IMG/VR virus record: IMGVR_UViG_3300042934_000398
Span: 35,444 to 99,443 of that record
Direction: 5' to 3' (one strand)
Source: a virus
DNA length: 64,000 bases
Part shown: in pieces, positions 2 through 52,240 of the stretch
Layout: each line of letters begins with the position of its first letter
How positions within the stretch are numbered: position 1 is the stretch's first letter
Translations under genes and position numbers: made by a program
The notes under the pieces: generated by a model
Seen by the model: the letters and a program-made list of their open reading frames with translations, nothing else
Database searches by the model: none
What the model was told of the DNA's origin: nothing

Positions 2-727
2 GAAGGAAATGAAGAAAAAACTGACAAAACAGAAGAAGAATGGATTTGGGTAGAAGGTTATAAAGGTACAGATAAAGACATGAAGTGCCGTGATATGCAA
101 TATGAGTTAAATAAGACGTATGAACACGAAGGTAAAATTGAATTATGTGAATCAGGGTTTCACTTCTGTAAAGAATTAAGTAATGTTTTTGGATACTATT
201 CATTAGATAATGGTAATAGATTTTTCAAGGTAAAATGTCTAGTAATTAAAGATAAATGGGAGTCGGGCGACAATAAATTCACTGCCAAAGAAATTATTTT
301 TACAGAAGAATTAGGATATAAAGAATTAGAAAAATTTATTATTAAAAAATATTCATTTGTACATAACAAAAATGAATGGAATGAACTAAGTGAAATTGGT
401 ATTAAGAAATTTTACAGAAAGTATTTTATGAGTATTATGTCAGATGCTGGTTATGGAGAAACATTTTCTAATATCTTATATGATGATATAAATAAGAAAA
501 TCGAAGAAATAGAGTCTGAAAATAAGAGAAGATACATAGAGGCAAATTCTTATAGTAACATATATTATCCAAACCAATATATTTCAAAGCCTGTAAGAAA
601 TCCATTTTATATTTATGAGCCATCATATGATTATACTAGATTCGACGAATTGATTAATAAAGTAAAAGCATTTCAAGAAGAGGGATTATCAAAAGATATG
701 TCGGTTTATTTACTACTGAAAAGGTAA
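2..727 (+). CDS. Phage hypothetical protein (DUF7666-like N-terminal region), 5' truncated by the window
   Basis: Frame is open from base 2 (EGNEEK...WVEGYKGTDKDMKCR); GYKG...C.SGFHFC motif common in phage proteins. Confidence 0.7.
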   Translation, partial: EGNEEKTDKTEEEWIWVEGYKGTDKDMKCRDMQYELNKTYEHEGKIELCESGFHFCKELSNVFGYYSLDNGNRFFKVKCLVIKDKWESGDNKFTAKEIIFTEELGYKELEKFIIKKYSFVHNKNEWNELSEIGIKKFYRKYFMSIMSDAGYGETFSNILYDDINKKIEEIESENKRRYIEANSYSNIYYPNQYISKPVRNPFYIYEPSYDYTRFDELINKVKAFQEEGLSKDMSVYLLLKR

Positions 728-767
728 TCAAAAGCGCATTTCATTTGGAATTTGAAAGGAGAGAATA

Positions 768-833
768 ATGAGGAAATTAGCAAGTGTTAAAGTAGTAAGT
801 GATATGATGCCAATTGAAGGAATGTGGATGTAA
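768..833 (+). pseudogene. Orphan 5' remnant of an RNA ligase gene (MRKLASVKVVSDMMPIEG)
   Basis: Strong RBS GAAAGGAG; peptide parallels the N-terminus MRKLAHIEKIEWLSPI of the intact ligase at 1428. Confidence 0.7.
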
Positions 834-1450
834 TGGGTAAATATAGTGGTTTAAAAATTGGTGATAAATACAATAATTGGACTGTTGATTCAGAATGTTA
901 CAAAGACAAGAACGGTTCTGATGTTTACATGTGCAACTGTATTTGTGGAGAAAGAAAGCAAGTAGAAGGAAAGGCTTTAATTCTTGAAAGAAGTAAATCA
1001 TGTGGGTGTATAAAAAGAGTAAATGCCGAAGAACAAAAGAAACGCATTAAGGAATATAAAGCAAAATATTTTCAGGAAAACAAAGATAAAATTTATAAAA
1101 GAACTATTAATAATCAAAGATTACAAAGAGAAAAAGATATATAAGAATTTGGTATAGATAGGTATTCTTTAAAAAGTAGATATAATATTTCACTTGAACA
1201 ATATAAAGATTTATTAGATAAACAAAATAACAAATGTTGCTTGTGTAATGTCTTATTTGATAAAGAAGATAATTCAAAAAGACCATGTATCGATCATAAC
1301 CATGAAACACAAATTATACGCGGAATCATATGTAAGAATTGTAATTCTGCACTTGGTATGTTTAAGGATAATACTTTAGTTATGAAAAATGCAATAGAAT
1401 ATTTAGAAAGAGATGGTATATATAATGATGAGAAAATTAGCGCATATTGA
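833..1450 (+). pseudogene. Endonuclease VII-family homing endonuclease with an internal TAA at 1142-1144
   Basis: ORFs 824-1144 and 1241-1450 share a frame; read-through gives CxCG...SKSCGC followed by KYNISLEQY-like stretch, CCLC, IDHNH, RGIICKNCNSALG. Confidence 0.8.
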
Positions 1451-2507
1451 AAAAATTGAATGGTTAAGTCCTATTAAAGATAGGGATAAAATTGAATTAG
1501 TAGGGGTTTCTGGTTGGCAATGCATAGTAAAAAAAGGGGAATTTAATATTGGTGATAAATGCTGTTACATAGAAATTGATAGTGTAATGCCAGAGACTGA
1601 ACAATTTGAATTTCTAAGAAGTAAAAAGTTTAGAATTAAAACTATGAAGATGGCAGGAGTAATCAGTCAGGGTATTTGTTTCCCATTAAGTATTTTGCCA
1701 GAAGGTGATTATGAATTAGATCAAGATGTTACTGAGATTTTGGGAATTAAACAGTATGAAGAAACAATGGACATTGAAAGAAATGCACCAGCATCATCAG
1801 ATAGTAAAAAGAAATATCCTAATTTCTTAATGAAATTTAATTGGTTTAGAAAGTTGGTATTACCAAAGAAACAAGCTAAAGGATTTCCAGAATTTATTAG
1901 TAAAACAGATGAAACTAGAATTCAGAATGCACCATTTTATTTACAAAACAAAAACGAATGGACAGCAACAGAAAAGGTTGATGGTCAATCAGGAACGTTC
2001 TTTTTAAGAAAAGAAAAATGTAAACGAATATTTAAAAAGACTACATATGAGTTTGGAGTATGCTCTAGAAATCTTAGAATCTGGAATGAAGATAGTTCTT
2101 CATATTGGACTGTAGCTAAGAAGTATAATATTAAACAAGTGTTATTAAATAATATTGGTGATAATGAGTTTATGGCTATTCAAGGTGAATGTATAGCTGC
2201 TAATGTACAAGGAAATAAATACAAGGTTACTGCGCCAGATTTATATGTGTTCAATGTATTAACTCCAAATGGAAGATTAGGCTCTGTAGAAGCAAAAGAA
2301 TGGGCTGAACAGAATGGATTGAAATTTGTACCTATAATTGATGAACATTATATCTTACCTGATAGTGTAAAAGAAATATTAGCATATGCACATGGAGAAA
2401 GTAAATTATATCCAACATTAAGAGAAGGTATCGTGTTTAGAAGTAAAGATGGAAAACAGAGTTTTAAGGCAGTTGATCCACTTTTCTTACTAAAACATGA
2501 TGAATAA
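1425..2507 (+). CDS. RNA ligase, DRB0094/Rnl family
   Basis: MRKLA N-terminal OB-like region, KTDETRIQN, EKVDG adenylation motif, GEC, REGIV, SFKA. Confidence 0.9.
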   Translation: MMRKLAHIEKIEWLSPIKDRDKIELVGVSGWQCIVKKGEFNIGDKCCYIEIDSVMPETEQFEFLRSKKFRIKTMKMAGVISQGICFPLSILPEGDYELDQDVTEILGIKQYEETMDIERNAPASSDSKKKYPNFLMKFNWFRKLVLPKKQAKGFPEFISKTDETRIQNAPFYLQNKNEWTATEKVDGQSGTFFLRKEKCKRIFKKTTYEFGVCSRNLRIWNEDSSSYWTVAKKYNIKQVLLNNIGDNEFMAIQGECIAANVQGNKYKVTAPDLYVFNVLTPNGRLGSVEAKEWAEQNGLKFVPIIDEHYILPDSVKEILAYAHGESKLYPTLREGIVFRSKDGKQSFKAVDPLFLLKHDE

Positions 2508-2552
2508 TACTATAAGATCATTCTTTGAATCGGTTTTGAGAAAGGGGTAAAT

Positions 2553-2816
2553 ATGACAGAAGAAAATAAGAAAAGATGTAGAGAAGAAATTGAGTTAAGA
2601 AACTGGAATAAGTTAGGGATTATTGAACCAAATGTATCACCTTTAGTATGGAATAAAGAAGTTGAATTAATGTATGAGGATATGGATGGGCAACCATGTA
2701 GATGTAATGCAATTTATGTTCATAATAGTTTTGGTTCAGATTATTTTCAAGCGACAAATGGGATGGCTAAAGGGAATCGTATGAGTAGTTGTATCGCTTA
2801 TAGAGAATTAAAATAA
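2553..2816 (+). CDS. Hypothetical protein
   Basis: ORF with RBS. Confidence 0.65.
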   Translation: MTEENKKRCREEIELRNWNKLGIIEPNVSPLVWNKEVELMYEDMDGQPCRCNAIYVHNSFGSDYFQATNGMAKGNRMSSCIAYRELK

Positions 2817-2835
2817 ACTTATAGAGGTAGATAGT

Positions 2836-3337: not shown

Positions 3338-3733
3338 ATGAAATTTGAAAGTAAATTTGAGTTAGGACAGCAAGTATGGGGTACAGTTATTAATGATAAA
3401 AGTACATATGAACCAGTGGAATGTGATTTATGTGATAGCACAGGGTTTGTCATCGTAAAAGGGAAAGATGTAGAATACATTTGCCCTCAATGTTTTGGAG
3501 ACAAACAATATAAGAAATTAGGTAAAGAAATGACAATCTGCAAAACTGGTAAAATAGGCAAAATATGTGTAGAACAGTATGATAGTCAATATAAAAATAC
3601 AAGTGGAACAAAATATATGATCGACAAAACAGGAGTAGGAAGTGGAACTGTGTGGCGTGAAGAAGAATTATTTGCATCCGAAGAAGAAGCTCAAAGGGCT
3701 TGCGATGAATTTAATAAAAACAATTTACTATAA
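3338..3733 (+). CDS. Hypothetical protein with CxxC...CPxC zinc motif
   Basis: RBS; CDLCDSTG and CPQCFG. Confidence 0.7.
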   Translation: MKFESKFELGQQVWGTVINDKSTYEPVECDLCDSTGFVIVKGKDVEYICPQCFGDKQYKKLGKEMTICKTGKIGKICVEQYDSQYKNTSGTKYMIDKTGVGSGTVWREEELFASEEEAQRACDEFNKNNLL

Positions 3734-3771
3734 AGGACGAATTTTATCGTGAAATAGAAGGGATGTGACAG

Positions 3772-4962
3772 ATAATATATAAAACAAAAATAATACCAGT
3801 TAAGTGTAGCAAAACTGATTATCATTATTTATTGAGACTGAACAAATTGTCAGCCGAAGTTTGGAATTATTGCGTGAAGATTGATAAAGAATATTATACA
3901 AATAATAAAAAATATATGGATATGAGAACTATACAAACAGCAGTTAAGTGTTATAACAATCTTCACGCAAAAGGAATTTACTATGTTTATAGAAAGTATA
4001 TGTTTGCAAGAGATTCAATGTTTAGGTCAATTAAAGCAAAGCATGATACAAGCAATAAAGTAAAATTACCTTATAAGAAAAAGAAGTATTTTAATACAGG
4101 TTGGGATTATCAAAGTATTAAATATGATTTTGAGAAAGGATTGATAAAATTATCAAGACCAATATCGCATGATGAAAATGGTAAGAAAATAAACAATCCA
4201 CCTGTCAAATGTTATACAAAAAACATTCCACAAGATATTAAAGAGATTGAATTGGTATATCGTAATGGATTATATTTAGTAATTAAATATAAGGAAGAAG
4301 ATATACAACAATTAATTCAATCCAATAATTCAGCGGCTATTGATCTTGGAGAAATACATAGCATTACATCTATAGATAATAATGGACATGCAATAATTAT
4401 TACTGGAAGAAAATTAAGAAGTATCAAGAGGTTAAGAGATAAAGAACAAGGTAAATTAAGAAGTAAAATGTCGAAATGTAAAAAGCATAGTAAACAATAT
4501 AAGACATATAGAAATGCATTATGGAATTTAAAGTATAAGACAGAAAGGCAGATATTTGACTGTGTTCATAAGATATCAAAATTATATCTCGATTACTGCT
4601 TAGAGAATAATATTTCTAAAGTTTACTATGGTGATTTAGACAACTGCACTCGAAATTCATCTGAAAAGATTGGTAAAATGGTTGGTCAGAAATTAAACGA
4701 ATGGAACTATGGAGAACTCACTTTACAGCTACGAAACAAATTGGAACGATATGGAATAGAAATGATAAAAGTAAGTGAAGCATATAGTTCTCAGACCTGT
4801 CCTCATTGTGGAAAGCGTCACAAGCCAAATTCTCGTAACTATGATTATAGGTGTGGTTATCATCAGCACAGAGATTTGGTAGGAGCAATAAACATTCTTA
4901 ATTTCAATGAAGACATTAAACAAGAATATCATACAAGTTTTAAGTATCTACGGATAGAGTAA
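3772..4962 (+). CDS. tnpB: Solo TnpB RNA-guided endonuclease (IS200/IS605/IS607 superfamily), no TnpA
   Basis: RuvC-I AAIDLG, YYGDL plus VSEAYSSQTCPHC (rearranged catalytic Glu), RuvC-III HRDLVGAINI; frame open back to ATA at 3772. Confidence 0.9.
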   Translation: MIYKTKIIPVKCSKTDYHYLLRLNKLSAEVWNYCVKIDKEYYTNNKKYMDMRTIQTAVKCYNNLHAKGIYYVYRKYMFARDSMFRSIKAKHDTSNKVKLPYKKKKYFNTGWDYQSIKYDFEKGLIKLSRPISHDENGKKINNPPVKCYTKNIPQDIKEIELVYRNGLYLVIKYKEEDIQQLIQSNNSAAIDLGEIHSITSIDNNGHAIIITGRKLRSIKRLRDKEQGKLRSKMSKCKKHSKQYKTYRNALWNLKYKTERQIFDCVHKISKLYLDYCLENNISKVYYGDLDNCTRNSSEKIGKMVGQKLNEWNYGELTLQLRNKLERYGIEMIKVSEAYSSQTCPHCGKRHKPNSRNYDYRCGYHQHRDLVGAINILNFNEDIKQEYHTSFKYLRIE

Positions 4963-5045
4963 TCTAAAGTAGTAGATGGCTAGGTTGGAGTCCTAAGTAG
5001 TCCGTTGTAATTTGACGAGAAATTTTCAGTAATGAAAAAGCCAAC
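4950..5045 (+). ncRNA. Putative omegaRNA scaffold of TnpB
   Basis: GC-richer non-coding stretch at and after the tnpB 3' end, the expected omegaRNA position; boundaries approximate. Confidence 0.45.
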
Positions 5046-5087
5046 CAAATATAATTTTGATTTGATTAGAAGAAATGAGGTGATTTT

Positions 5088-5501
5088 ACGATATTTTATT
5101 GTCCAAAATGCAAGAAGTTAGATATTAATTTTAAAATGAATTCAGACATTCCACATGTAGTAAACATCAGAGATGGTTACGGACACCCTCTTTATCATAT
5201 GAAGTGTGAATGTGGAAATTATCTATCAGCAGGAATCCATTTTACAAAGGAAGAAGTAGAAAAGGATTCTGGTTTACTTGATTATATTAAAGAGGTTATC
5301 ACTGGTTATAACAAAGATGGATGTTTTTATATGGATGGCTATTATAAATATGTGGAAGATAGAATAAACAAGATAGAACAACGAAATAAAGAAGTATTAG
5401 AAGAACGAGCAAGAATTTCTGTTATGAGTGAATTAGAAAAGAAAGAATATTTTGAAAAGAAATATGAAGAAATGATGAAACGGCTAGGAGAGGAGAAATA
5501 A
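5088..5501 (+). CDS. Hypothetical zinc-binding protein; probable ACG/ATA start
   Basis: Frame extends 5' of the tracked ATG to IFYCPKC, pairing with CECG; SD GAGGTGA. Confidence 0.65.
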   Translation, partial: TIFYCPKCKKLDINFKMNSDIPHVVNIRDGYGHPLYHMKCECGNYLSAGIHFTKEEVEKDSGLLDYIKEVITGYNKDGCFYMDGYYKYVEDRINKIEQRNKEVLEERARISVMSELEKKEYFEKKYEEMMKRLGEEK

Positions 5502-5502
5502 T

Positions 5503-5799
5503 ATGGAAAGATTAACTAAGATTACGACAAGTGGATTTGATAATAAGAAAGTTGACACAGAAGATTATAGCGTATATGAATTATTACAAATGGTATTAGG
5601 CAAGTTGGCAGCATATGAAGATACAAATTTAATGCCTGATGAAGTGGAAGAACTACAAGGACGAATTGAACATTTGCAAAAATTCTATGATTACTTTTGC
5701 GAATTATATGGTACAGGTTTAGATGTCGCTAACTGGCATTTAAATGGAGATCTAGAACCGTTTGATAACTTTTTCGATAGTGCGGAAGAGTCAGAATAA
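5503..5799 (+). CDS. Phage protein (MERLT...KLAAYED family)
   Basis: Common phage motif; paralogue at 35166. Confidence 0.7.
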   Translation: MERLTKITTSGFDNKKVDTEDYSVYELLQMVLGKLAAYEDTNLMPDEVEELQGRIEHLQKFYDYFCELYGTGLDVANWHLNGDLEPFDNFFDSAEESE

Positions 5800-5842
5800 A
5801 TGTGACATTTTATTATGATATTTAATAAGAAAAGGAGATAAT

Positions 5843-6334
5843 ATGAGACAAATAAGAAGAAATGTATTTGAAACAAATTCAAGCAGCACACATAGTATTT
5901 GTATTACCAGTAGAGATAAGTTATTAAATATTCCTAAATCAATCCACTTTAGATTAGGTGAATTTGGATTGGAATGTGAAAATTATCATGATAGCTCATC
6001 TAAAGCAGAGTATCTATATACAGCAATTATGTGTTGTGAAAGAACAAAACTATTAGAAAAGATTAAAGAATACTTAGATAAAAATGGAGTTGAGTATTCG
6101 TTTGATGAACCAAGATATTATACAGGAACATATGGCACATGGATTGATAACGCAAGTATTGACCATACAGAAGATTTACCAGAAATTATTAATGATATTT
6201 GTGGCGATGAAGTTAAGTTGCTTAGATATTTATTTTCAGAAGAAAGCTTTGTTTTAACAGGAAATGATAATGATGACGAAGATGTAGATATTAACGTTGA
6301 CTATGAACATGTAGAATATTATAAAGGAAATTAG
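5843..6334 (+). CDS. FETNSSSTHS-motif protein 1
   Basis: N-terminal MRQIRRNVFETNSSSTHSI; strong RBS. Confidence 0.8.
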   Translation: MRQIRRNVFETNSSSTHSICITSRDKLLNIPKSIHFRLGEFGLECENYHDSSSKAEYLYTAIMCCERTKLLEKIKEYLDKNGVEYSFDEPRYYTGTYGTWIDNASIDHTEDLPEIINDICGDEVKLLRYLFSEESFVLTGNDNDDEDVDINVDYEHVEYYKGN

Positions 6335-6347
6335 GAGGATAAATAAT

Positions 6348-6734
6348 ATGAAACAGATTAGACGTGGAGTTTTTGAAACAAATAGTAGTAGTACTCATTC
6401 AATTACAATGTGTTTAAAATCCGATTATGATAGATGGGTAAAAGGTGAGATTCTTTTATTTAAAGGAAGCGGATGGTCATTTGAAGAAGGATATAAACCA
6501 CAAAAGAATAATTTTTATACAAGAGCTGAAGCCATTGAGTTTATGAAACATGATAAGTATTGTTCTAATGATACTAATTGGGACGACAACGATGCGGTAG
6601 ATGAAATACTTAGAGAAAATGAGTTTGTAGATTCTGATTATGAAAATGACGAATTAGAATGGTACGAAGAAACATACATCACACCATCAGGAGAAGAAGT
6701 AATTGCTTTTGGTGAATACGGATATCAGGGTTAA
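6348..6734 (+). CDS. FETNSSSTHS-motif protein 2
   Basis: N-terminal MKQIRRGVFETNSSSTHSI; strong RBS. Confidence 0.8.
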   Translation: MKQIRRGVFETNSSSTHSITMCLKSDYDRWVKGEILLFKGSGWSFEEGYKPQKNNFYTRAEAIEFMKHDKYCSNDTNWDDNDAVDEILRENEFVDSDYENDELEWYEETYITPSGEEVIAFGEYGYQG

Positions 6735-6748: not shown

Positions 6749-7648
6749 ATGAGACAATTGGGAATGTACATAAACGGTAATTATAAAGTAAAGATATTTA
6801 GTGATGGAACAAAGGTAAGAGAAACAAATGAAAATGAGTTTATCGCTGCATTCCCTGAGAATATGGATGTAAAGATAACAAATCAATGTGATATGGGATG
6901 CATCTTCTGTCATGAAGATAGTAAGATTGATGGAAAACATGGAGATATTCTTAATCAAATATTTATTAATACTTTGCACCCATATACTGAAATGGCAATA
7001 GGTGGTGGTAATCCATTATCTCATCCAGACTTAATTCCTTTCTTAGAGAAGCTAAAAGTGAAGAAGATTATTGCAAACATTACAGTTAATCAAGTTCATT
7101 TTGAAACTAGTCAAGAATTAATTAAGAAGTTGGTTAATGAAAAGTTGATTTATGGACTAGGTGTGTCTCTTGTAGATGCTTCAAAAGGATTTGTAGAGTT
7201 GATTAAGCAATATGATAATGCTGTAATTCATGTTATTAATGGAGTTTTGAAACCTTCTGATATTGAAGTTTTAAAAGACAATGATTTAAAAATGCTTATT
7301 CTTGGATACAAACACTTTAGAAGAGGTATTAGTTGGTATGAAGTAAGACAGGACGATATTACAACAAAACAGGAATGGCTATATAAAAATCTAGCAGAAA
7401 TCACAAAGCAGTTTAAAGTAGTTAGTTTCGATAATCTAGCGATTGAGCAACTTAATGTAAAAAGATTGATGAGCGAGAAAGATTGGAATGAGTTTTATAT
7501 GGGAGATGACGGCATGTACACCATGTATGTTGATCTTGTTAATCAGAATTTTGCTAGATGTTCAGTGGCAGAAAAAAGATATGGGTTACTAGATAATATT
7601 GAAGATATGTTTAACATAGTTAGAGATGAAAAACTGGCAATGAAATAG
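6749..7648 (+). CDS. Radical SAM protein
   Basis: CxxxCxxC (CDMGCIFC), GGGNPLSHPD. Confidence 0.9.
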   Translation: MRQLGMYINGNYKVKIFSDGTKVRETNENEFIAAFPENMDVKITNQCDMGCIFCHEDSKIDGKHGDILNQIFINTLHPYTEMAIGGGNPLSHPDLIPFLEKLKVKKIIANITVNQVHFETSQELIKKLVNEKLIYGLGVSLVDASKGFVELIKQYDNAVIHVINGVLKPSDIEVLKDNDLKMLILGYKHFRRGISWYEVRQDDITTKQEWLYKNLAEITKQFKVVSFDNLAIEQLNVKRLMSEKDWNEFYMGDDGMYTMYVDLVNQNFARCSVAEKRYGLLDNIEDMFNIVRDEKLAMK

Positions 7649-7679
7649 AAAACTTATTTGCTTTTGGAAAGGAAGATAT

Positions 7680-7847: not shown

Positions 7848-7893
7848 AAATAGAATAAATTCGATATTCGATTAAGAAAGGAGAGTTATTATA

Positions 7894-8064: not shown

Positions 8065-8124
8065 TAAATAATATTAGACAACAAAACAAGTGATTGATGT
8101 TCTTATTGGAAAGGAGGAGTTGCC

Positions 8125-8367
8125 ATGATGTCGTCATCTTTTACAGCAGGTGGTAGGTTATTTTGCTCTTATTGCGGCAAAGAAATGCTTAATTGTAAGT
8201 GTAATTGTGAAAAAGCTAAAAAGGATATCGAAATTCAAAACGATATATTTATAAGTCAAGAAAATTTAAGAATTTTAATTTCAGAGAGACTTTCGGAAAA
8301 AGATATTAGAAAAATACAGATTGAAGAAGATATTAAAGCATTAAATAATGAACTTAAATCATTATAA
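8125..8367 (+). CDS. Hypothetical Cys-rich protein
   Basis: AAGGAGG RBS; CSYC...CKCNC. Confidence 0.65.
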   Translation: MMSSSFTAGGRLFCSYCGKEMLNCKCNCEKAKKDIEIQNDIFISQENLRILISERLSEKDIRKIQIEEDIKALNNELKSL

Positions 8368-8405
8368 ATTGAGCCTTTTATCGACTTTGGAAAGGAGTAA
8401 TTAAA

Positions 8406-10780: not shown

Positions 10781-10824
10781 GCAGACCAATGATGCTTTTT
10801 ATTGGGATTTAGGAGGTGAGACAA

Positions 10825-11265
10825 ATGAAATTAAAGGATAAAATTAGGCATAAACTAATAAAGTTTCTATTGATAGACGAGGTAGAAAAAAATTGTATTG
10901 AAGAAACTAAAAACGTCAAAAGAGAATTAGATAAAGAAATACTTCATTTAAATAGTGGATGCGATAATTTATTTCAGTCTATAAGGCAAATAGATGCAAA
11001 TGTTAAAAATAATAAAGAATCAATAGATATATTACATAATACAATCAGAAATGTAGTTTCGGTAGGAGCAGATGTAATTCCATATGAAAATAATAGAAGT
11101 TGGGCGGTAGTTTGTATAGAAGGAAATTATAATCTTGTCAAATTTATTGATTTACATGGTGCAGACTATAGGCAGATTTTAAACTTTCTCAAACAATATG
11201 AAGGTTCAAGAATGGTTGTTGATGCACCTAACCCAAGATATTTTGAGAGTATGTTTAAGTTTTGA
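10825..11265 (+). CDS. Hypothetical protein
   Basis: AGGAGGTG RBS. Confidence 0.7.
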   Translation: MKLKDKIRHKLIKFLLIDEVEKNCIEETKNVKRELDKEILHLNSGCDNLFQSIRQIDANVKNNKESIDILHNTIRNVVSVGADVIPYENNRSWAVVCIEGNYNLVKFIDLHGADYRQILNFLKQYEGSRMVVDAPNPRYFESMFKF

Positions 11266-11315
11266 TAAAAGTTGTATTTTATTGTAAATAATATAAATCA
11301 TAGGAGGTGAAATAA

Positions 11316-11943: not shown

Positions 11944-12158
11944 TTAAGGAGAGAGATGATATGTTTAGGATTAACAGTCCACCTAATTACAAATAATAAT
12001 AGACAACATATGGTGTATTGCAAGTAATCAACAACAATATATAGACGATAAAAGCACATCAATTCGGGGTTTTATTCGGTATTTATAACCACATAAATAG
12101 ATAATAATAAACAAGGCAACTATTAAAAATTATAATACATAATAAGGAGAAATAAAAT

Positions 12159-18874: not shown

Positions 18875-18885
18875 GAGGTGGTTAA

Positions 18886-37017: not shown

Positions 37018-37064
37018 ATAGCAAATAAAAGGTAGATTTTAACATGTTTTAGAAAGGAATAAAT

Positions 37065-37469: not shown

Positions 37470-37724
37470 GAGTAAATCAGTTGTATCTTTGATTATGTAA
37501 TGTCAAAATCCCACATAATACTCACAGTAATATTGTTCGGATACTACATGAAAAAAAGGTGACTTTGACAATGAAATTAGTGATAAATTGTGTAGAACAA
37601 TATCTTATATCGCAACTATAATTAATGAATTGCTTACACATATTTATGTAACTAGTATTAACTGAATTAAAAAATATATACATATAAATACAGATTTCTA
37701 TTACAAAAACAAAAGGAGATATAA

Positions 37725-38528: not shown

Positions 38529-38529
38529 A

Positions 38530-39030: not shown

Positions 39031-39060
39031 AATTAAATACAAATAATAATAAACAAGTTA

Positions 39061-39089
39061 TTGACATTTGATTAAGAACGTGTTATATT
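39061..39089 (+). promoter_or_regulatory. SigA-type promoter
   Basis: TTGACA-N17-TATATT with extended TG; AAATAATAATAAAC just upstream. Confidence 0.75.
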
Positions 39090-39198
39090 TAGTTCATGGC
39101 AGAAATACAAGCTATAGAATATAAGTATATCACGTTTTTAATTTCTGTCTTACATAAAAAATATAACAAAGATAATAATAAACAAGAAAGGGGGAAAT

Positions 39199-39561
39199 AT
39201 GAGATTTAAGGATTATAAAGCAATGTTACATAAAGAAGAACGAATGCTTAATCGTATTCACACAATGGACATGAGTTTAAATGGTGGTGATGAATTAGTA
39301 GATATCTATGATATTACAATACCAGAAAACTTCAAATTAACAAAGCCAAAAAGAAAGAAGATTTACAGAGCCTTTAATTACTTTATCAGAAATGGATTCT
39401 TTGACAAACCAATAAGTGTTATTATTGAAAGCAATGAGAATGGTAAGGCTAATAGATTTGTTTTGGTAGATGGGTATTCAAGATATGTGGCTGCAAGGTG
39501 GATGTATATGAGGTTTATTCCGGTTAAATACATAGATATTAACGATGTTATAATTAAATAA
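39199..39561 (+). CDS. ParB/Srx-like domain protein
   Basis: PISV...LVDGYSRYVAA. Confidence 0.65.
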   Translation: MRFKDYKAMLHKEERMLNRIHTMDMSLNGGDELVDIYDITIPENFKLTKPKRKKIYRAFNYFIRNGFFDKPISVIIESNENGKANRFVLVDGYSRYVAARWMYMRFIPVKYIDINDVIIK

Positions 39562-39598
39562 GAAATGTAAATAATAATATACGAGGTAAGTAGAATTT

Positions 39599-39964
39599 AT
39601 GAGAGATAAAAATAGGATTAAACCATTCTTAGCAGAACTAGAAAAAGCATGGTTATACAGCCCTGATTTAAGATTTACGCAGCTTGTTATTAATCTACTT
39701 GGAATTGATTCATATTATATGGAAGACGAAGATGCTTTGAAGGTTATTCAACGATATAATGGAACTAAGGACGATGAGATATTTAAAGTTAGATGCAAGT
39801 GAGAATCTTGTGGTAAAGAAATTAAGGTAGGTGTTCCAAAGAAAGATTACTACGGTGGCGATTTTGATTGTAGATTTGGAAATACATGTAATGAATGCGT
39901 ACCGTCAGATAGTGTTACTAGGGATGGAATGTGCGAAAGTACATATTTAGAAATCGAAGAATAG
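39599..39964 (+). pseudogene. DUF1040-like N-terminus fused to a Zn-ribbon, interrupted by TGA at 39800
   Basis: MRDKNRI...W..PDLRF; read-through RCK*ESCGK...CNEC continues to TAG at 39962-39964. Confidence 0.6.
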
Positions 39965-40009
39965 AAGCCAAAACAAAGATGTACTTTATTAGGAGTTGAA
40001 AGGAGATTT

Positions 40010-40165
40010 ATGAAAAGAGAAGACGAAATTACTAGGTTAATATTATTATGGGGATATGAAACAATAGGTGATTTATCGGATGGGATTCCATTCTGCACAT
40101 TATCTTCATTATCAAGTTACTTAGCAGATAATATGATTTTAAAATCTGAAATAGAAAATCAATAA
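40010..40165 (+). CDS. Small hypothetical protein, not in ORF track
   Basis: GAAAGGAG RBS. Confidence 0.55.
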   Translation: MKREDEITRLILLWGYETIGDLSDGIPFCTLSSLSSYLADNMILKSEIENQ

Positions 40166-40212
40166 CAAATCTAAAATTGGTGTGCTTATTAAAAGAAAGA
40201 GAGGAATAAACA

Positions 40213-40641
40213 ATGGGATTGGATAGAGAACCTATAAAGATTGCAAATGCTTTAAAAATTGCAAAAGAATATTATAACGAAAAAACATACCAACATGCTT
40301 TAAGAGTTATGCAATACGTAGCAGATAATGAAATGATTCAAAGTGAGTATAAAGATGAATGTGTGGCATTAGCTATAATGCACGATCTATTAGAAGATAC
40401 AGATTTTAATAGTGCTTATTTTCCAGAATACTTCAATAAAGCATTAAAATTACTAACCAAACCAAAAGAACAAGACTACATTGATTACATTAAGAACATT
40501 AAAGATACTGGCTACACAAATTGGAGAATGTGTGCTTATTGGGTTAAATTAGCAGATATGAAAGATCATTTAGCACAGACCGAAACACTTACAGATAAGT
40601 TGAAAGAAAAGTATTTAAAAGCGTTACCATATTTACTATAA
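40213..40641 (+). CDS. HD-domain protein, small alarmone hydrolase/Mesh1-like
   Basis: HALRV, AIMHDLLEDT, LLTK, VKLAD. Confidence 0.8.
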   Translation: MGLDREPIKIANALKIAKEYYNEKTYQHALRVMQYVADNEMIQSEYKDECVALAIMHDLLEDTDFNSAYFPEYFNKALKLLTKPKEQDYIDYIKNIKDTGYTNWRMCAYWVKLADMKDHLAQTETLTDKLKEKYLKALPYLL

Positions 40642-40681
40642 AATGTGCATTCGATTTGCTTATTAGAAAGGGGAAAGAAAT

Positions 40682-40879
40682 ATGATTGTATCTAAAACTA
40701 GAATGTCCAAGATGCCAACTTCATGTAGTAAGTGCTCTTATTATGAAGTAGAAAGAGAATTCGGTCATGCTGACATTAGAATATGTAATGGATATGGTAA
40801 AGGATTTGATATTGAAAAGAATATTAAACCAACAGTTGAACGTTCCAAGAAATGTCCATTAATTGAAATTGAAGAGTAA
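40682..40879 (+). CDS. Phage protein (MPxSCxxC...RxxxCPL family)
   Basis: Common phage motif. Confidence 0.65.
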   Translation: MIVSKTRMSKMPTSCSKCSYYEVEREFGHADIRICNGYGKGFDIEKNIKPTVERSKKCPLIEIEE

Positions 40880-40922
40880 ATAAAAGCATTGATTGATGTA
40901 CTTATTAGAAAGGATAAAGAGT

Positions 40923-41114
40923 ATGAGTAGAATTATAAAATCGATTGCAAAATCAATCACATTAGTAACTCTTGCAATAATTATTGCTTTGGTGATACGT
41001 GTTGTTTGCAACTTGGCAATTGGTTTAATCGGTGTTTATCCATGTCTAATCATAGTTATTTTAATAATGATTATAACGGCAAGTGCAATGTTTTACAAAG
41101 ACAGTAACAGATAA
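40923..41114 (+). CDS. Small membrane protein
   Basis: Two hydrophobic segments; RBS. Confidence 0.65.
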   Translation: MSRIIKSIAKSITLVTLAIIIALVIRVVCNLAIGLIGVYPCLIIVILIMIITASAMFYKDSNR

Positions 41115-41132
41115 TAAGAAAGGAGATAAATA

Positions 41133-41351
41133 ATGAGCCAACCATGTAAATATAACAGTTTTAGTCCATGTGAGGAATGCGATAAGTGTTATGGTATCAA
41201 AAATCATACTCATGTATATTGTACAAACTGTAGGCATTTCAGATTAGATGATGAAGAAATTCCTTATTGCCCTTACGAAGAAAAAGAATGTGATATAAGA
41301 GACTGTGAAGATAGCAGACCATTTAGTGAAAGACCAATGTATGAAGAATAA
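41133..41351 (+). CDS. Cys-rich hypothetical protein
   Basis: RBS. Confidence 0.65.
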   Translation: MSQPCKYNSFSPCEECDKCYGIKNHTHVYCTNCRHFRLDDEEIPYCPYEEKECDIRDCEDSRPFSERPMYEE

Positions 41352-41394
41352 TTGATGTTACCGACACGAATGTCGGGAAGAAAGGACGAATTAG

Positions 41395-41577
41395 ATGAAA
41401 CTAGAACATGAATTATTAGAAGAATACATATATATAAATTTCCCATACGAAGAATATGGAGATTTAACAATAGAAAATATGTTAACCATATACGACTCAT
41501 TGGGATACAAATCTTATGTATTAAATGTCGCTGCTAAAAACTTGGGAAAAGATTTACTGAAACTATTTAAAAGATGA
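41395..41577 (+). CDS. Hypothetical protein
   Basis: RBS. Confidence 0.6.
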   Translation: MKLEHELLEEYIYINFPYEEYGDLTIENMLTIYDSLGYKSYVLNVAAKNLGKDLLKLFKR

Positions 41578-41615
41578 TAGATCATTGATTTTATTAGGTT
41601 GAGAAAGGAGAAAAT

Positions 41616-41723
41616 ATGTTAGACAAATTATTATGTAAGATACAATTATATAGTTATTTATTACCAACATGTAGAATTGGTAATGCTATCATGGATTTTA
41701 GAAAACAACACACAATCAAATAA
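41616..41723 (+). CDS. 35-aa hypothetical peptide, not in ORF track
   Basis: GAAAGGAG RBS; bounded by junction motifs at 41576 and 41714. Confidence 0.5.
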   Translation: MLDKLLCKIQLYSYLLPTCRIGNAIMDFRKQHTIK

Positions 41724-41757
41724 ACCTTCTAATGGGTTTGTGGAAAGGAAGTGAAAA

Positions 41758-42009
41758 ATGAATCTAATAGATTTCCATGTAACTAAAATCATATCTGAAG
41801 AAAAAGATGTAGTATATAAATTATTAAATATAACAAAAGAACAGGTAGATAACGAAACAGAAGAATTGTGGAAAAACTTTCTTCTTGGAAATGGTGTAAA
41901 ACAGACATACGAATATTGGGATGATGGTGGGACAAGAATAGATACAGAAATATTTAACTTAGATAAAAATCAGAAACCATATTATGTAGGTTATGTTGGG
42001 CAACATTAA
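41758..42009 (+). CDS. Hypothetical protein
   Basis: RBS. Confidence 0.65.
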   Translation: MNLIDFHVTKIISEEKDVVYKLLNITKEQVDNETEELWKNFLLGNGVKQTYEYWDDGGTRIDTEIFNLDKNQKPYYVGYVGQH

Positions 42010-42048
42010 AAGATAATAATAAACACAATAATTAAAGAGGAGGATTGC

Positions 42049-42636
42049 ATGAACGAGAAATTTAACTTTGTTTTCTGTAAATACGCACATGGAAAGAATA
42101 AAAATTATATAAAATGTGCCAACTGCAAAAAAGATATGTGTCCAAGTGTTAGTAATATTTTATACGGTAAAGTATTCAAGTTACCTGTAATCAAACAAAT
42201 ATATAAATTAATCAGTAATATTTATTATGATATTGAAACAAAGAGATATGAAAATGACTACATAAACGAGTACGAAATAGGTGATATGAAACACATATGG
42301 GGACTTAAATCATATGATGATTTATCTTCAAGTAGCGGAGCTAATATACATATAATGAATGATATCGAATTACTCTATCATAAAGATACGGAAGATTATT
42401 CTATCAGTATTGAAACAATCTATATGTTTGAATTAAAAGATGGAGATATAAAATATCTTAAATGTCTATTGGATAACTTTACTAAATGGATGGACGAGCA
42501 TGGATATAGAACAGATAGCAGGGTTAATTTATACGAAGTATTTACATATGGTAACAACATCAACACGCATTTTAAGACAATAGAAGAGTGTTATGCAAAC
42601 TTTAAGATGCTAGTTAATGGGTATTGTAGTTTATAA
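42049..42636 (+). CDS. Hypothetical protein
   Basis: GAGGAGG RBS. Confidence 0.7.
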   Translation: MNEKFNFVFCKYAHGKNKNYIKCANCKKDMCPSVSNILYGKVFKLPVIKQIYKLISNIYYDIETKRYENDYINEYEIGDMKHIWGLKSYDDLSSSSGANIHIMNDIELLYHKDTEDYSISIETIYMFELKDGDIKYLKCLLDNFTKWMDEHGYRTDSRVNLYEVFTYGNNINTHFKTIEECYANFKMLVNGYCSL

Positions 42637-42684
42637 AAGCAAACTGAATTAGGATTTTGTTGACATTTTTATGAAAGGAGAGCA

Positions 42685-42900
42685 ATGGAAAAATTAATTG
42701 TAATATGGGGCAACGGATATGTTGGTGAATATGAGAAACGAGGAAAAGGATATTACCAGATATCAAACTTACATGAAGAAGTTTTCTGGGAAGTATTTAG
42801 AAAAGGTGTATTTAAAGATAAAAAAGATACTGCAAGATTTAAATTTATTCGTGGCAATGACATGGAGAAATTTGCAGCTACTAGAGATTTTATATTTTAA
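42685..42900 (+). CDS. Hypothetical protein
   Basis: RBS. Confidence 0.6.
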   Translation: MEKLIVIWGNGYVGEYEKRGKGYYQISNLHEEVFWEVFRKGVFKDKKDTARFKFIRGNDMEKFAATRDFIF

Positions 42901-42942
42901 CATCAATTGTAGTATCGATTTGAAGATTAGAAAGGAGTACAT

Positions 42943-43260
42943 ATGGAACAATCAGACGGTAATAAAGCCGGAGAAGCATTAAGAACTATATTAAACAGGT
43001 TAAAAACGATTAAAGATGAACCAGTAGAAGAATGCAAGAAGAGAGGATGTTTCCACTGCAAGAACTACGTTAGAAGAGAAGGATATAATCAGCAATGGGG
43101 AATGTATCAATTCTATAATAACTATTGTAACAAGGGCGTAGAAGAAGATAAACACATGTATATGGATAAAGATTGTGTATCATTTGAATTAGGTGAAAAT
43201 CAGTATATTTATATGTCTGACAAAGAAAAAAGAAGGATTGAGCGAGGTTGTAGAATATGA
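42943..43260 (+). CDS. Cys-rich hypothetical protein
   Basis: RBS. Confidence 0.65.
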   Translation: MEQSDGNKAGEALRTILNRLKTIKDEPVEECKKRGCFHCKNYVRREGYNQQWGMYQFYNNYCNKGVEEDKHMYMDKDCVSFELGENQYIYMSDKEKRRIERGCRI

Positions 43261-43535
43261 AGAAAATTAAAGTAGTTGATTTTATTAAAACATTAGAAGA
43301 AATTTGTTTTGATGATGAAACAGAGTTAGTTTTCGACACACTAGATGGAACTACAGGAGAGCCGTATGATTTAGAATTAAATGAGTTTTATTTCGGTGAT
43401 GCTTTATGTGTACCTAACGTGAATGAAATTAACATTGAATTTATGGTAAGCGATGAATTTATCAAGGCAAAATCAAGTGAATTGGTTAGTGATCTTGCTG
43501 AAGAAATCAGGGATGTAATTAATAAGTACAGATAA
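43257..43535 (+). CDS. Acidic hypothetical protein
   Basis: ATGA overlap with previous gene. Confidence 0.65.
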   Translation: MKKIKVVDFIKTLEEICFDDETELVFDTLDGTTGEPYDLELNEFYFGDALCVPNVNEINIEFMVSDEFIKAKSSELVSDLAEEIRDVINKYR

Positions 43536-43583
43536 GACAACCAAATCAACAATTGCTTTGGTTATGAGAAAGGAGTGATAACA

Positions 43584-43807
43584 ATAATTCAAGCACCATG
43601 TAAAGGCTGTCCAGATAGATATTTGGACTGTTATGATAAATGTAGTAAATTCAATACATATAAGTTAGAGAGTGATAATATTAAACAAATGAAATGAAAT
43701 TGCGAGAAAATATATTTAGAAATTATATGGGGCAACAATCAAAAATAAATGACAAGAATAAGTTTGAGAAAAGTAAATTTCACAGACCTAGCGGATGTCA
43801 AAGTTAG
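43584..43807 (+). pseudogene. Small PCKGCPDR...C protein frameshifted by a 5-bp ATGAA duplication near 43689-43698
   Basis: AGGAGTGA SD plus ATA start; removing one ATGAA restores a single frame to TAG at 43805-43807. Confidence 0.55.
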
Positions 43808-43816
43808 AAAGGAGTA

Positions 43817-44017
43817 TTGAAAATGAGTGATATCACAAGAAAAGGTTGGAAATGTGATGCTTGTGAAAAAGAATTTTTTGAAGGTCAGTATGGATATGCT
43901 AATAGATATAAAGTAATAATAGAGCATCATTCAAATACCATTGATGGTAATAATACAGATTTAAAAGATGTGTGTAAAGAATGTGTTGATAGGATAATAG
44001 ATGCTTTAAATATTTAA
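43817..44017 (+). CDS. Zn-ribbon hypothetical protein
   Basis: CDAC...DVCKEC. Confidence 0.65.
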   Translation: MKMSDITRKGWKCDACEKEFFEGQYGYANRYKVIIEHHSNTIDGNNTDLKDVCKECVDRIIDALNI

Positions 44018-44041
44018 TAACCGGCTTAAAAAGGAGAGGTA

Positions 44042-44245
44042 ATGAATAGTAATATAACACGAATTAACTGTAATGAACCAAGATCAATGTATTTATTCTT
44101 CAGTAGAGTACAAAGGATACTATCTAAAAATCATGGTGGAGTGGCACCAAAAGGATTGTGGAATGAATTAAAAGAACTTGAGATGGATGCACTAAATTAT
44201 TACTTCTATGATGCATACTTAGATAAACAAAGAGAAACCAAATAA
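44042..44245 (+). CDS. Hypothetical protein
   Basis: RBS. Confidence 0.6.
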   Translation: MNSNITRINCNEPRSMYLFFSRVQRILSKNHGGVAPKGLWNELKELEMDALNYYFYDAYLDKQRETK

Positions 44246-44306
44246 ATGCGTTATTCGATTAGCTTAGTACAAATAATAATATACAATAATAAAGGAGAAT
44301 GAAACA

Positions 44307-44531
44307 ATGCAAGATGAACGTTATGTAATTGTAACAAAGGGAAATATTAAGAAATTTCCAATAGACAAAAGAAACAGATTTACATTAAAAGGTGACACCA
44401 CAATGGATATATTTGAAGGTTATCTCTATATTTCTGAAGATTTAGCTTTGGAAGATATGGCAGATATGAATCTTAGTCCAAAGGAATACGAAGTTAAAAA
44501 ATATAAATTTACAGTAGAAGAGGTTAAATAA
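44307..44531 (+). CDS. Hypothetical protein
   Basis: RBS. Confidence 0.65.
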   Translation: MQDERYVIVTKGNIKKFPIDKRNRFTLKGDTTMDIFEGYLYISEDLALEDMADMNLSPKEYEVKKYKFTVEEVK

Positions 44532-50865: not shown

Positions 50866-51192
50866 TTATTTTTTGTTGATTGTATACCCACTTAACTCAG
50901 TTACTAATCCTTCAATCAGAATATCTATTTGTTCTTGTGTAATTTTAATACCTTTTTGTGTTGCATAATGACTTATTGCATCAATGACATAAGCCTTCTT
51001 TTCTTCACCTGATTTCGGTATGTTTTTATAAATTGATTCAGCAGCATTAACGCATTTTTCAATAAAATCTAATACGTCAGCATATTTAGAGTTTTCTAAT
51101 TTTAATTTAACAAATGGAATTATGTATCTAAATACCACTAAAGCTAAAATACCTATTGTATACTTAATAATTGTAAATAATGTTTCATTCAT
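50866..51192 (-). CDS. Phage holin, LL-H family
   Basis: N-terminal TM; VNAAE...GEEKKAYV...ITQEQIDILIE. Confidence 0.8.
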   Translation of the reverse strand: MNETLFTIIKYTIGILALVVFRYIIPFVKLKLENSKYADVLDFIEKCVNAAESIYKNIPKSGEEKKAYVIDAISHYATQKGIKITQEQIDILIEGLVTELSGYTINKK

Positions 51193-51204
51193 AATTTATT
51201 CCTC

Positions 51205-51486
51205 CTATTGATTTATAATCTGATTAATATCAACTTGATCTTTAAATTCTTGTGGCAAAGAACTTATAATTTTTATTCGATTTTCCACTTTACTTTTTAT
51301 GTAATAAAATGTATTCGCAGCTGTAACTTCTCCCCATGATGCTAAGGTAATATTCTCGATTGGAGATACATCAATTTTAAAAATAATACCAACTAACATA
51401 AATAAAGTGAGAGATATAGCAATAATATAACTTGTAACTAAAATTTTTTTACTGAATTCCATTTTCTTTTTATTTTCTTTAATCAT
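51205..51486 (-). CDS. Lysis-cassette membrane protein
   Basis: EFSKKIL, two TM segments, FYYIKSKVEN. Confidence 0.7.
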   Translation of the reverse strand: MIKENKKKMEFSKKILVTSYIIAISLTLFMLVGIIFKIDVSPIENITLASWGEVTAANTFYYIKSKVENRIKIISSLPQEFKDQVDINQIINQ

Positions 51487-51495
51487 TACATCACC

Positions 51496-51930
51496 TTACT
51501 TCCCATCGTAAAAACTATTATGCTCAAGACAATATTGATATTTATTTGAGATATACTTAAAAGCCAGGTCTATTTGACCATTAGTTAATCCTTTTGTCTC
51601 AACATAGTTATTATATCTATCATGTAATGATATAATATTAACATAATTTTCCTTACTCTTTTCTTCACCTCTCATTAATTCATCGGCAAAGTTTAATATG
51701 TTTCTACGCATACTTTCAACTTTATGATCCTGAAGATCATACTGTAATGTTTTTACATCAGATTGAATTTGTGAAATATCTTTTTTGACATCTCTATTCA
51801 ATCTATTACCAATCCATCCTAATAACATTGATATTGGGTTAAATTTAATTGGAGATATTTCAAATAGCATCCCACTCCCAAATAGTATCCAACCTCCGTA
51901 TTTTATATAATCTAATATTTCTTTTTCCAT
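51496..51930 (-). CDS. Lysis-cassette membrane/holin-associated protein
   Basis: EISPIKFNP...RRNILNFADE...NG family seen in Firmicutes phage lysis modules. Confidence 0.7.
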   Translation of the reverse strand: MEKEILDYIKYGGWILFGSGMLFEISPIKFNPISMLLGWIGNRLNRDVKKDISQIQSDVKTLQYDLQDHKVESMRRNILNFADELMRGEEKSKENYVNIISLHDRYNNYVETKGLTNGQIDLAFKYISNKYQYCLEHNSFYDGK

Positions 51931-51968
51931 CCCTCAATTTACACTCATCCTTTCTTTTTTATTGTAAC

Positions 51969-52066
51969 TTGAAACTTACTGGATTACGTGTTATAATTAA
52001 TTAGCACGAATCATTAGTGTTAGAGGATGTTGGTAAATCCCAAAATGCGTCAACATCCTCTTTAAT
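51969..52066 (+). ncRNA. Putative ~60-nt antisense sRNA (promoter included in coordinates)
   Basis: TTGAAA-N17-TATAAT with extended TG on +, then hairpin TAGCAC/GTGTTA and strong AGAGGATGTTG/CAACATCCTCT stem; no ORF. Confidence 0.5.
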
Positions 52067-52240
52067 TAAAAAAACATTAAAATAAGAGCCAATATAAGGC
52101 TCTATAATTTTTTACCCATAATCTAATACCTAATTTACATTTTAATGCCTATATAAAGGCTGTACAAATTAATATAATACTTATAATCAACAAAAATTCC
52201 ACTCTGGATAAAACACAGATTTTATAAAGAATTACATAGT

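Follow-up and report, generated by a model that had tools for sequence, protein, structure and literature searches.

INTRODUCTION

Mosaic phage genomes break at gene borders, and it is an old question whether these breaks result from chance illegitimate recombination followed by selection or from conserved linkers between modules. In lox and FRT sites, inverted arms surround a centre of 6 to 8 bp, and only sites with the same centre recombine. The pdif/dif modules of Acinetobacter plasmids, which belong to the XerC/XerD system, have 11-bp arms matching the host dif site and occur in alternating orientation. In this study we analyzed an 18-bp palindrome that recurs between the small genes of a phage of the SPbeta type, within a stretch of 64,000 nucleotides (the window) that comprises bases 35,444 to 99,443 of the 99,443-bp virus record IMGVR_UViG_3300042934_000398. 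The genome under study is labelled G000. As described below, the six-base centre of the palindrome is conserved in a close relative at junctions where the arms and the neighbouring genes have changed.

Short repeated elements have been described in the intergenic regions of several phages. T4-type phages carry PeSL (promoter-early stem-loop) cassettes consisting of sigma-70-like promoters and terminator hairpins, which undergo recombination with each other as repeats, yielding mini-circles (Arbiol et al. 2010, PMC2839356). In cluster A mycobacteriophages, stoperators are asymmetric 13-bp sites that co-vary with the immunity repressor among close relatives (PMC6550527). At SPbeta promoters, a 15-bp non-palindromic box termed SPBRE is bound by a monomer of MrpR, a protein of tyrosine-recombinase fold (PMC10516654).

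RESULTS

A palindrome with 6-6-6 anatomy recurs at gene junctions

The regions from -62 to -13 of 130 + strand genes were subjected to unseeded motif discovery by expectation maximization with zero or one occurrence per sequence (ZOOPS-EM), which recovered ATAAAA..a..aTTTgATT.gg at about 42% of these genes. Alignment of 59 intergenic sites defined an 18-bp dyad, ATMAAA-N6-TTTKAT, in which arm 1, the centre and arm 2 are 6 bp each, with additional weak positions (G/C at -3 and GG at +21/+22). About 60 copies are present in the record and about 36 in the window. When the + strand of the 99,443-bp record was scanned with a position weight matrix (PWM), 50 matches of at least 12 bits were found compared to 5 expected from first-order Markov shuffles, and 82 compared to 18 at a threshold of at least 10 bits. 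The pattern ATMAA-Nk-TTKAT showed a spacing peak at k=8, with 24 occurrences versus about 10 at other values of k. The strict pattern was weakly enriched (10 versus 4.1, 2.4-fold), and a degenerate model is therefore needed to see the signal.

An initial annotation of the window had reported a repeated palindrome at gene junctions and had proposed to compare its frequency with shuffled sequence. The unseeded discovery, the PWM counts against shuffles and the single-spacing peak show that this element is real. Its anatomy had been given as 6-8-6 and is in fact 6-6-6, shifted by one base. Of the 33 sites listed at that time, 31 score at least 10 bits and two are weaker (3729, 7.5 bits; 34736, 9.9 bits), and three junction sites, at 28478, 37476 and 40164, had been missed.

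Nearly all sites are located between a stop codon and the Shine-Dalgarno (SD) sequence of the following gene, within arrays of small genes, a placement already noticed in the initial annotation and confirmed here by the distances: arm 1 lies at -8 to +9 nt relative to the upstream stop codon, which overlaps arm 1 in about 10 sites, the SD core begins 3 to 19 nt past arm 2 (mode 11 to 13 nt), and the next start codon follows 17 to 26 nt past arm 2. All sites share one polarity, along the coding strand, and no promoter hexamers were found in the junction motif. The replication and structural operons are almost free of sites. None of the seven junctions of the replication operon (13.4 to 27.9 kb) carries one, in agreement with the initial annotation, and the matches in this operon lie only inside genes.

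The 59 centres of the G000 sites all differ from one another, a distinctness that has no statistical power, and their G+C content is 37% compared to 28% in other intergenic DNA (p=2e-4). Distinct and G+C-richer centres fit an addressing role. Sharing of half-sites inside G000 is weak, with at least 12 exact bases in common on the right side in 2 of 1,711 site pairs and on the left side in none. The best-scoring motif match (20.1 bits) lies on the + strand at window positions 54010 to 54027, inside the - strand tail-fibre gene 52311-54446; chance or a joint within the fibre gene could account for this match.

The arms vary independently and do not form a stable fold

Reverse-complement symmetry with independently varying halves is the product of a two-fold symmetric protein acting on double-stranded DNA, as in operators and recombinase core sites. 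In the palindrome, Watson-Crick pairing at each of the six symmetric arm positions is as frequent as predicted for independence. Positions 3 and 16 alternate between A/C and T/G, and a mismatch would result there in 28 of 50 sites (Fisher p=1.0). The arms are paired in the minimum-energy fold of 12 of the 59 sites (mean z-score -0.23), and the mean fold energy of -1.8 kcal/mol is not better than that of shuffles. Because the arms vary independently and the site has no fold, we read it as a duplex site composed of two half-sites; it would thus be a double-stranded DNA site for an inferred two-fold symmetric protein and not a hairpin. An RNA hairpin or attC-like fold is ruled out by the absence of covariation and of a stable fold, and a known RNA family by the absence of any Rfam match in the window.

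Centres are conserved between unrelated genes in a close relative

The close relative G001, an IMG/VR contig of 38.5 kb with a 95% identical polymerase, is a mosaic of G000. Homology blocks of G001 start at arm 1 (genome positions 27289, 27665 and 47501) or at the border of arm 1 and centre (46234) and stop just past arm 2 (25122 and 46726). A 1-kb insertion in G001 has two copies of one site at its flanks. In two stretches no gene homology was detectable (G001 3951-6596 versus G000 25122-27289, and G001 18563-27983 versus G000 37951-44491), and the proteins of corresponding slots, which are of different lengths, show no relationship (alignment Z -0.7 to 1.6). Both stretches nevertheless have junction sites whose centres are identical and follow the same order. 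At six consecutive junctions of the first stretch, situated between unrelated genes, 35 of 36 centre positions are identical, whereas the arms are identical at 53 of 72 positions (74%), which equals the 71% baseline of unrelated sites (Fisher p=0.003 for the contrast between centres and arms). The flanks of these junctions are at the unrelated baseline as well. Five more collinear centre matches are found in the second replaced stretch, and in total G000 and G001 share 30 site centres compared to a null value of 4.4. As the six-base centre alone is common, the arms appear to have travelled with the genes, with breaks on either side of the centre.

The sites of the window are listed below with window coordinates, strand and PWM score.

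727-744, +, 15.9 bits: junction palindrome, centre AGCGCA; same site and centre in G001
2512-2529, +, 12.8 bits: junction palindrome after RNA ligase gene; G001 homology stops at the preceding stop codon
3298-3315, +, 12.5 bits: junction palindrome, centre CTATAC; 47-nt island common with G001, genes on both sides differ
3730-3747, +, 7.5 bits: weak junction palindrome upstream of tnpB; matches the strict pattern
5044-5061, +, 14.4 bits: junction palindrome downstream of tnpB, centre TATAAT; G001 has the same centre, arm 2 and right flank but a different arm 1
5796-5813, +, 13.5 bits: junction palindrome, centre GTGACA; arm 1 and centre shared with G001
7645-7662, +, 11.6 bits: junction palindrome after radical SAM gene
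7855-7872, +, 13.6 bits: junction palindrome
8081-8098, +, 15.1 bits: junction palindrome, centre CAAGTG; centre alone shared with G001
8364-8381, +, 14.9 bits: junction palindrome, centre TGAGCC; centre and arm 2 shared with G001
10785-10802, +, 16.4 bits: junction palindrome, centre GATGCT; G001 block begins at the border of arm 1 and centre
11265-11282, +, 13.8 bits: junction palindrome, centre GTTGTA; G001 block stops at the last base of arm 2
12058-12075, +, 16.8 bits: junction palindrome, centre TCGGGG; G001 block begins at arm 1
28478-28495, +, 10.3 bits: junction palindrome, absent from the earlier list
28807-28824, +, 10.3 bits: junction palindrome
29004-29021, +, 15.5 bits: junction palindrome
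29401-29418, +, 15.2 bits: junction palindrome
29647-29664, +, 11.7 bits: junction palindrome
30148-30165, +, 11.3 bits: junction palindrome
30387-30404, +, 14.3 bits: junction palindrome
30745-30762, +, 12.2 bits: junction palindrome
33630-33647, +, 10.5 bits: junction palindrome
34418-34435, +, 16.8 bits: junction palindrome
34737-34754, +, 9.9 bits: weak junction palindrome
37025-37042, +, 12.1 bits: junction palindrome
37476-37493, +, 12.6 bits: junction palindrome, absent from the earlier list
39972-39989, +, 14.1 bits: junction palindrome
40164-40181, +, 11.9 bits: junction palindrome, absent from the earlier list
40638-40655, +, 19.0 bits: junction palindrome
40880-40897, +, 14.1 bits: junction palindrome
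41577-41594, +, 16.3 bits: junction palindrome before a 35-aa open reading frame (ORF)
41715-41732, +, 15.4 bits: junction palindrome after the 35-aa ORF
42902-42919, +, 11.7 bits: junction palindrome
43540-43557, +, 15.6 bits: junction palindrome
44242-44259, +, 15.5 bits: junction palindrome, followed by the 15-bp AAATAATAATATACA element at 44271
52208-52225, no strand given, 12.8 bits: isolated palindrome in the - strand structural module, between - strand genes and outside the arrays

Two slots of the arrays deserve description. The gene at window positions 3832 to 4962, between two junction sites, encodes a TnpB protein (OrfB_IS605 and Cas12f-like TNB domain), and an adjoining TnpA was not seen. 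In G001, the RNA ligase gene is followed by a 235-aa gene (L133:18620-19327) in which HNH-like Cys/His motifs were recognized by eye and which is preceded by a TAATAATAATAGACA element and an SD sequence; G000 has three small genes at this place. The next junction site past this slot, with the centre CTATAC, is the same in both genomes.

The palindrome in SPbeta and other relatives

Further relatives compared were G018 (167 kb, with terminal repeats), G008 and the related pair G002/G003. ATAAAA-N6-TTTTAT is the top junction motif in G018 and G008, and in many relatives identified via the polymerase gene the dyad exceeds a reversed-pattern control. The first 100 kb of Bacillus phage SPbeta contain 8 ATMAAA-N6-TTTKAT sites compared to 0 to 1 at every other spacing, and a 20-kb early stretch of SPbeta contains 10 TAAAA-N6-TTTTA sites, again compared to 0 to 1 at other spacings. 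By these matches the palindrome is family-wide, from SPbeta to this phage of 28% G+C. A literature search found no paper describing it.

Breakpoints were then analyzed in about 20 kb each of six phages of the SPbeta group (SPbeta, Goe13, SPbetaL8, SPbetaL4, phi3T and SPR), where the test is more powerful because sites are rare. All six phages have the same centres, arranged in a common order. Of the 236 unique homology block ends, 73 are found no more than 12 nt from a site, although the sites make up only 1.7% of the sequence, with block starts clustering at -6 to 0 and block ends at 0 to +2 of the sites. A block end was present at 37 of 43 junctions with a site compared to 61 of 161 siteless junctions (odds ratio 10, p=1e-8). 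Of 10 shared sites, 8 show left and right flank alleles in differing combinations, and one site is followed by six different right flanks. One slot of this stretch holds a gene annotated as Gad1 in SPbetaL4.

In the pair G002/G003, a pistol ribozyme was found by Rfam (62.6 bits) in an intergenic linker of G002 (L137:18241-18308; G002 58241-58308), and linkers at G002 59138-59250 contain hammerhead-like CTGATGA...GAAAC cores that are below the Rfam threshold. Both the ribozyme and these cores adjoin points of gene replacement between G002 and G003.

A separate 15-bp element is placed at promoters

The arrays hold several internal promoters of the sigma-A type (TTGACA type), each preceded by a separate, non-palindromic 15-bp element, AAATAATAATA[AGT]ACA, directly upstream of the TTGACA -35 boxes. 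It is placed 2 to 14 nt upstream of the -35 box or directly upstream of an SD sequence and starts at the following window positions.

8730, 9067, 11991, 12099, 13354, 16576, 25785, 25895, 31066, 39041, 39170, 42011, 44271, 44705, all +: 15-bp element

Re-derivation of SPBRE from SPbeta gave about AAAAATATGTATATA, and the 15-bp element is likely to be the counterpart of the SPBRE operator for an MrpR-like repressor. The junction dyad and SPBRE are both repeated intergenic elements of SPbeta-like phages, and a homologue of MrpR is encoded in this genome; however, the dyad is palindromic and sits in promoterless linkers, whereas the role of SPBRE fits the 15-bp element at the -35 boxes. As the latter is the better counterpart of SPBRE, the junction dyad is not the MrpR operator, which is thus ruled out as its identity, and SPBRE and the 15-bp element represent a separate system.

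The genome is that of an SPbeta-like phage

The record has 28% G+C and an estimated completeness of about 61%. Small + strand genes occupy 11 to 85.5 kb of the genome, and - strand structural genes lie at both ends. By its gene content the phage is SPbeta-like, with a YonO-type RNA polymerase and an MrpR-like repressor gene. YonO is a single-chain RNA polymerase related to the multisubunit polymerases. The homologue in this phage has 869 aa (L001:3749-6358, - strand, genome coordinates, outside the window) and shows 24% identity to SPbeta YonO across 829 residues (E=2e-16). SPbeta YonO initiates the late operon from a single promoter (PMC5467207). The YonO promoter was rejected as the identity of the motif, since a single late promoter cannot explain 60 sites in early arrays.

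The MrpR-like protein has a PF22822 domain and matches SPbeta YopR over its full length. Its gene is preceded by a 421-aa gene (phrog_5732, no function given), the pair being located at L002:10514-12764 (genome 28514-30764), and by its position ahead of the mrpR homologue we take the 421-aa gene as the candidate yopQ counterpart. Between G000 and G001 the MrpR-like protein is 100% and the product of the adjoining 421-aa gene 99.8% identical. G001 carries a 1.5-kb insertion with a 413-aa ORF in the SD region of the latter gene. The genome further encodes a large serine recombinase, a PolIII alpha-type polymerase (annotated as dnaE in related Clostridioides phages), a RecD2-like helicase, an NAD-dependent ligase, a Sak4-like AAA_24 protein and a PD-(D/E)XK nuclease. 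In the left genome arm, a tRNA gene adjoins a skipping-rope RNA (RF02924, 66 bits) at L001:2218-2508 on the - strand. About 2.6 kb between the - and + strand modules (L001:8404-11054) have no ORF of at least 100 aa and carry copies of the 15-bp element on both strands; this region may be an early control region or an origin. No further close relatives covering the array at 28 to 44 kb were found in viral or metagenome contigs.

Candidate recombinases

The window contains no tyrosine recombinase, as stated in the initial annotation. A PF00589 tyrosine recombinase is encoded at genome positions 23570 to 24541 (L002:5570-6541), inside the accessory array and 11 kb upstream of the window. The catalytic residues R, K, HxxR, H and Y are visible by eye, and the N-terminal part is short. 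In BLAST comparisons it showed no similarity to SPbeta YopP and YomM, and no PDB relatives were found by sequence. At least one PF00589 tyrosine recombinase is present in each of the five genomes checked, SPbeta included. The PF00589 protein of this phage and SPbeta YopP are candidate recombinases for the sites.

DISCUSSION

We have established the palindromic motif, its position between genes, the independence of its arms and its presence in the family, as well as the way in which centres are conserved and flanks reassort. The explanation that we favour, with modest confidence, is that the sites are fixed, centre-addressed joints for exchange between phages, as would result from a reaction of the tyrosine-recombinase type or from cutting and rejoining. 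In this model the inverted 6-bp arms (ATMAAA and TTTKAT) would be read by a two-fold symmetric protein, both the binding and the identity of the protein being inferred, and the sites, which are built into the linkers of about 45 bp between the small early and accessory genes of SPbeta-like phages, would serve as fixed joints for gene exchange among related phages. The exchanged unit would consist of arm 2, SD sequence, ORF, stop codon and arm 1, while the 6-bp centre would remain in place as an address, each joint pairing only with the same joint in another phage. Since joints would pair only with like joints, gene order would be kept. Breaks on both sides of the centre would be expected from an exchange of the tyrosine-recombinase type between sites with identical centres, as in cassette exchange with variant lox and FRT sites; alternatively, the same pattern would be left if the centre were cut in a staggered manner and then rejoined.

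In its architecture the site corresponds to what is expected of a tyrosine-recombinase core site, with inverted arms around a centre of 6 to 8 bp and a sharp 6-6-6 spacing, and exchange points that flank a shared centre would fit such a site, too. A close parallel is provided by the heterospecific lox and FRT sites used for cassette exchange by Cre and Flp. They have the same inverted arms around a 6- to 8-bp centre, and two joints likewise swap the segment between them with order and orientation kept, the arms moving with the segment and the centre being common, a pattern that matches the six junctions of the first replaced stretch in G001. The lox and FRT variants, however, are engineered and have 13-bp arms, whereas the arrays described here are natural and have 6 conserved bp per arm. 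A bolder version of the proposal, which we advance as a tentative idea, is that SPbeta-like phages possess a natural cassette-exchange system comprising dozens of heterospecific sites with common arms and private 6-bp centres, by which an enzyme would swap single genes between co-resident phages in register. The enzyme could be a phage tyrosine recombinase or a centre-cutting nuclease together with a ligase.

Similarities exist also to two other systems. PeSL elements, like the sites described here, are short repeated intergenic elements among small non-essential genes that coincide with insertions, deletions and replacements between close relatives, but the palindromes contain neither promoter hexamers nor a stable hairpin, have unique centres, and apparently undergo exchange at the same joint across phages. 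As with the pdif modules, a replicon is interspersed with many sites of the tyrosine-recombinase type that have a 6-bp centre and border discrete gene modules. In contrast to pdif, the arms are 6 bp and all sites have one polarity; of the 11-6-11 layout of pdif, the centre length alone is shared.

Several observations weigh against exchange at addressed joints. Conservation of the arms is strong over 6 bp each, which is short for a recombinase arm (9 to 13 bp in lox, FRT and dif). The initial annotation had proposed to search the rest of the genome for a tyrosine recombinase, and the PF00589 protein is one, but for this sole tyrosine recombinase of the genome the identity to G001 is only 35%, in spite of identical sites, and as PF00589 proteins are common in phages, the presence of one says little. 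Centre sharing with the distant relatives G018, G008, G002 and G003 is at the null level, as is centre conservation at loci found via the RNA ligase; as centres are not common to distant relatives, their conservation could reflect recent common descent. That breakpoints between relatives coincide with the motif holds in part: homology blocks start and stop at sites in G001, but enrichment is absent there, with block ends at 7 of 30 junctions with the motif versus 5 of 28 without it (p=0.75). It is present in the SPbeta group, but the six phages are related, and the counts behind the odds ratio of 10 are therefore not independent and overstate the number of events. One four-gene insertion or deletion joins two sites with differing centres. 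Between G002 and G003, ORF-precise replacements occur at SD/ATG and stop codons, mostly without a palindrome, and gene-boundary mosaicism therefore does not need the site. In laboratory hybrids of phi3Ts and SPbeta, 15 of 16 junctions were located in long homologous regions (bioRxiv 10.1101/2020.05.06.055103).

The main rival, which we consider unlikely, regards the sites as operators or docking sites for a conserved dimeric regulator, such as a stoperator-like silencer preventing read-through in the lysogen or a nucleoid-type organiser. Recombination would then be incidental, the conserved 18-bp patches being the only homology remaining in diverged arrays on which homologous recombination, ordinary or relaxed, could act. 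The phage encodes proteins of its own for such recombination (the Sak4-like AAA_24 protein and the PD-(D/E)XK nuclease), and the swaps without palindromes in G002/G003 are in line with this. Dyad symmetry without arm covariation suits a dimeric binder, and the weak GG past arm 2 together with the narrow distance to the SD sequence provides a polarity matching transcription. The cluster A stoperators are similar in that a short site is repeated 20 to 30 times or more within operons, in short intergenic regions, its orientation following that of transcription (PMC6550527). However, stoperators have no free centre, whereas the dyad is symmetric and constant in SPbeta, G018 and G008, with a different centre in each copy, and an immunity-type operator would not be expected to stay constant from SPbeta to a phage with 28% G+C. 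An operator should keep its arms better than a free centre, and the opposite was seen in the first replaced stretch of G001; homologous recombination across the whole site would have left the arms shared as well. Moreover, a promoter-associated role is already filled by the 15-bp element at the -35 boxes, matching SPBRE/MrpR (PMC10516654), and the replication and structural operons are nearly devoid of sites.

Action in the mRNA, where each intercistronic leader would contain a site for processing or protein binding or an enhancer of translation, is improbable. The fixed place between stop codon and SD sequence, with arm 2 mostly 11 to 13 nt ahead of the SD core, and the polarity along the coding strand would suit such a role, and some linkers of G002/G003 carry self-cleaving ribozymes, including the pistol ribozyme identified by Rfam. 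Yet reverse-complement symmetry is meaningless for unpaired RNA, the arms do not pair, the window is without an Rfam match, and the ordered conservation of centres amid changing arms and genes would be left unexplained.

The initial annotation had interpreted the sites as boundaries of integron-like cassettes. The part of this claim that stands is that the sites border exchangeable units of SD sequence and ORF; the integron mechanism, in which promoterless cassettes with folding, attC-like single-stranded sites would be handled by an IntI-type integrase and expressed from a common promoter next to attI, is largely refuted and very improbable. Both attC and the palindrome are imperfect inverted repeats bordering small promoterless gene units; here, a variable centre lies between inverted arms, each small unit of SD sequence and ORF has one site, a tyrosine recombinase gene lies within the accessory region, and the 1-kb insertion in G001 is bordered by two copies of one site. 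An attC site, however, has 57 to 141 bp compared to the 18 bp found here, acts as a folded single strand, moves with its cassette and needs IntI and attI with its promoter Pc, none of which holds for the palindrome. The site is not attC-like in folding because pairing covariation of its arms and a stable fold are both absent; it does not travel with the cassette, because the centres keep their place and order when the flanking genes are replaced; and a single attI/Pc end is absent, because there are several internal sigma-A-type promoters. In addition, the recombinase is poorly conserved between genomes with identical sites. Finally, a compositional by-product of A-rich stop contexts followed by T-rich leaders, to which the 28% G+C of the genome, the mere 2.4-fold enrichment of the strict pattern and the overlap of stop codons with arm 1 in about 10 sites might point, is refuted by the sharp single-spacing peak in both G000 and SPbeta, the 10-fold excess of PWM matches over shuffles and the conservation of centres in order across genomes.

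If the palindromes are indeed exchange joints addressed by their centres, they would represent a concrete linker between modules that carries an address. As SPbeta is a genetically tractable model phage, the idea is directly testable. The slot holding Gad1 in SPbetaL4 suggests that the joints may set the rate at which counter-defence genes are reshuffled. A dedicated enzyme, if it exists, would make the system a natural counterpart of recombinase-mediated cassette exchange, and, if true, the proposal would provide a programmed mechanism for phage mosaicism.

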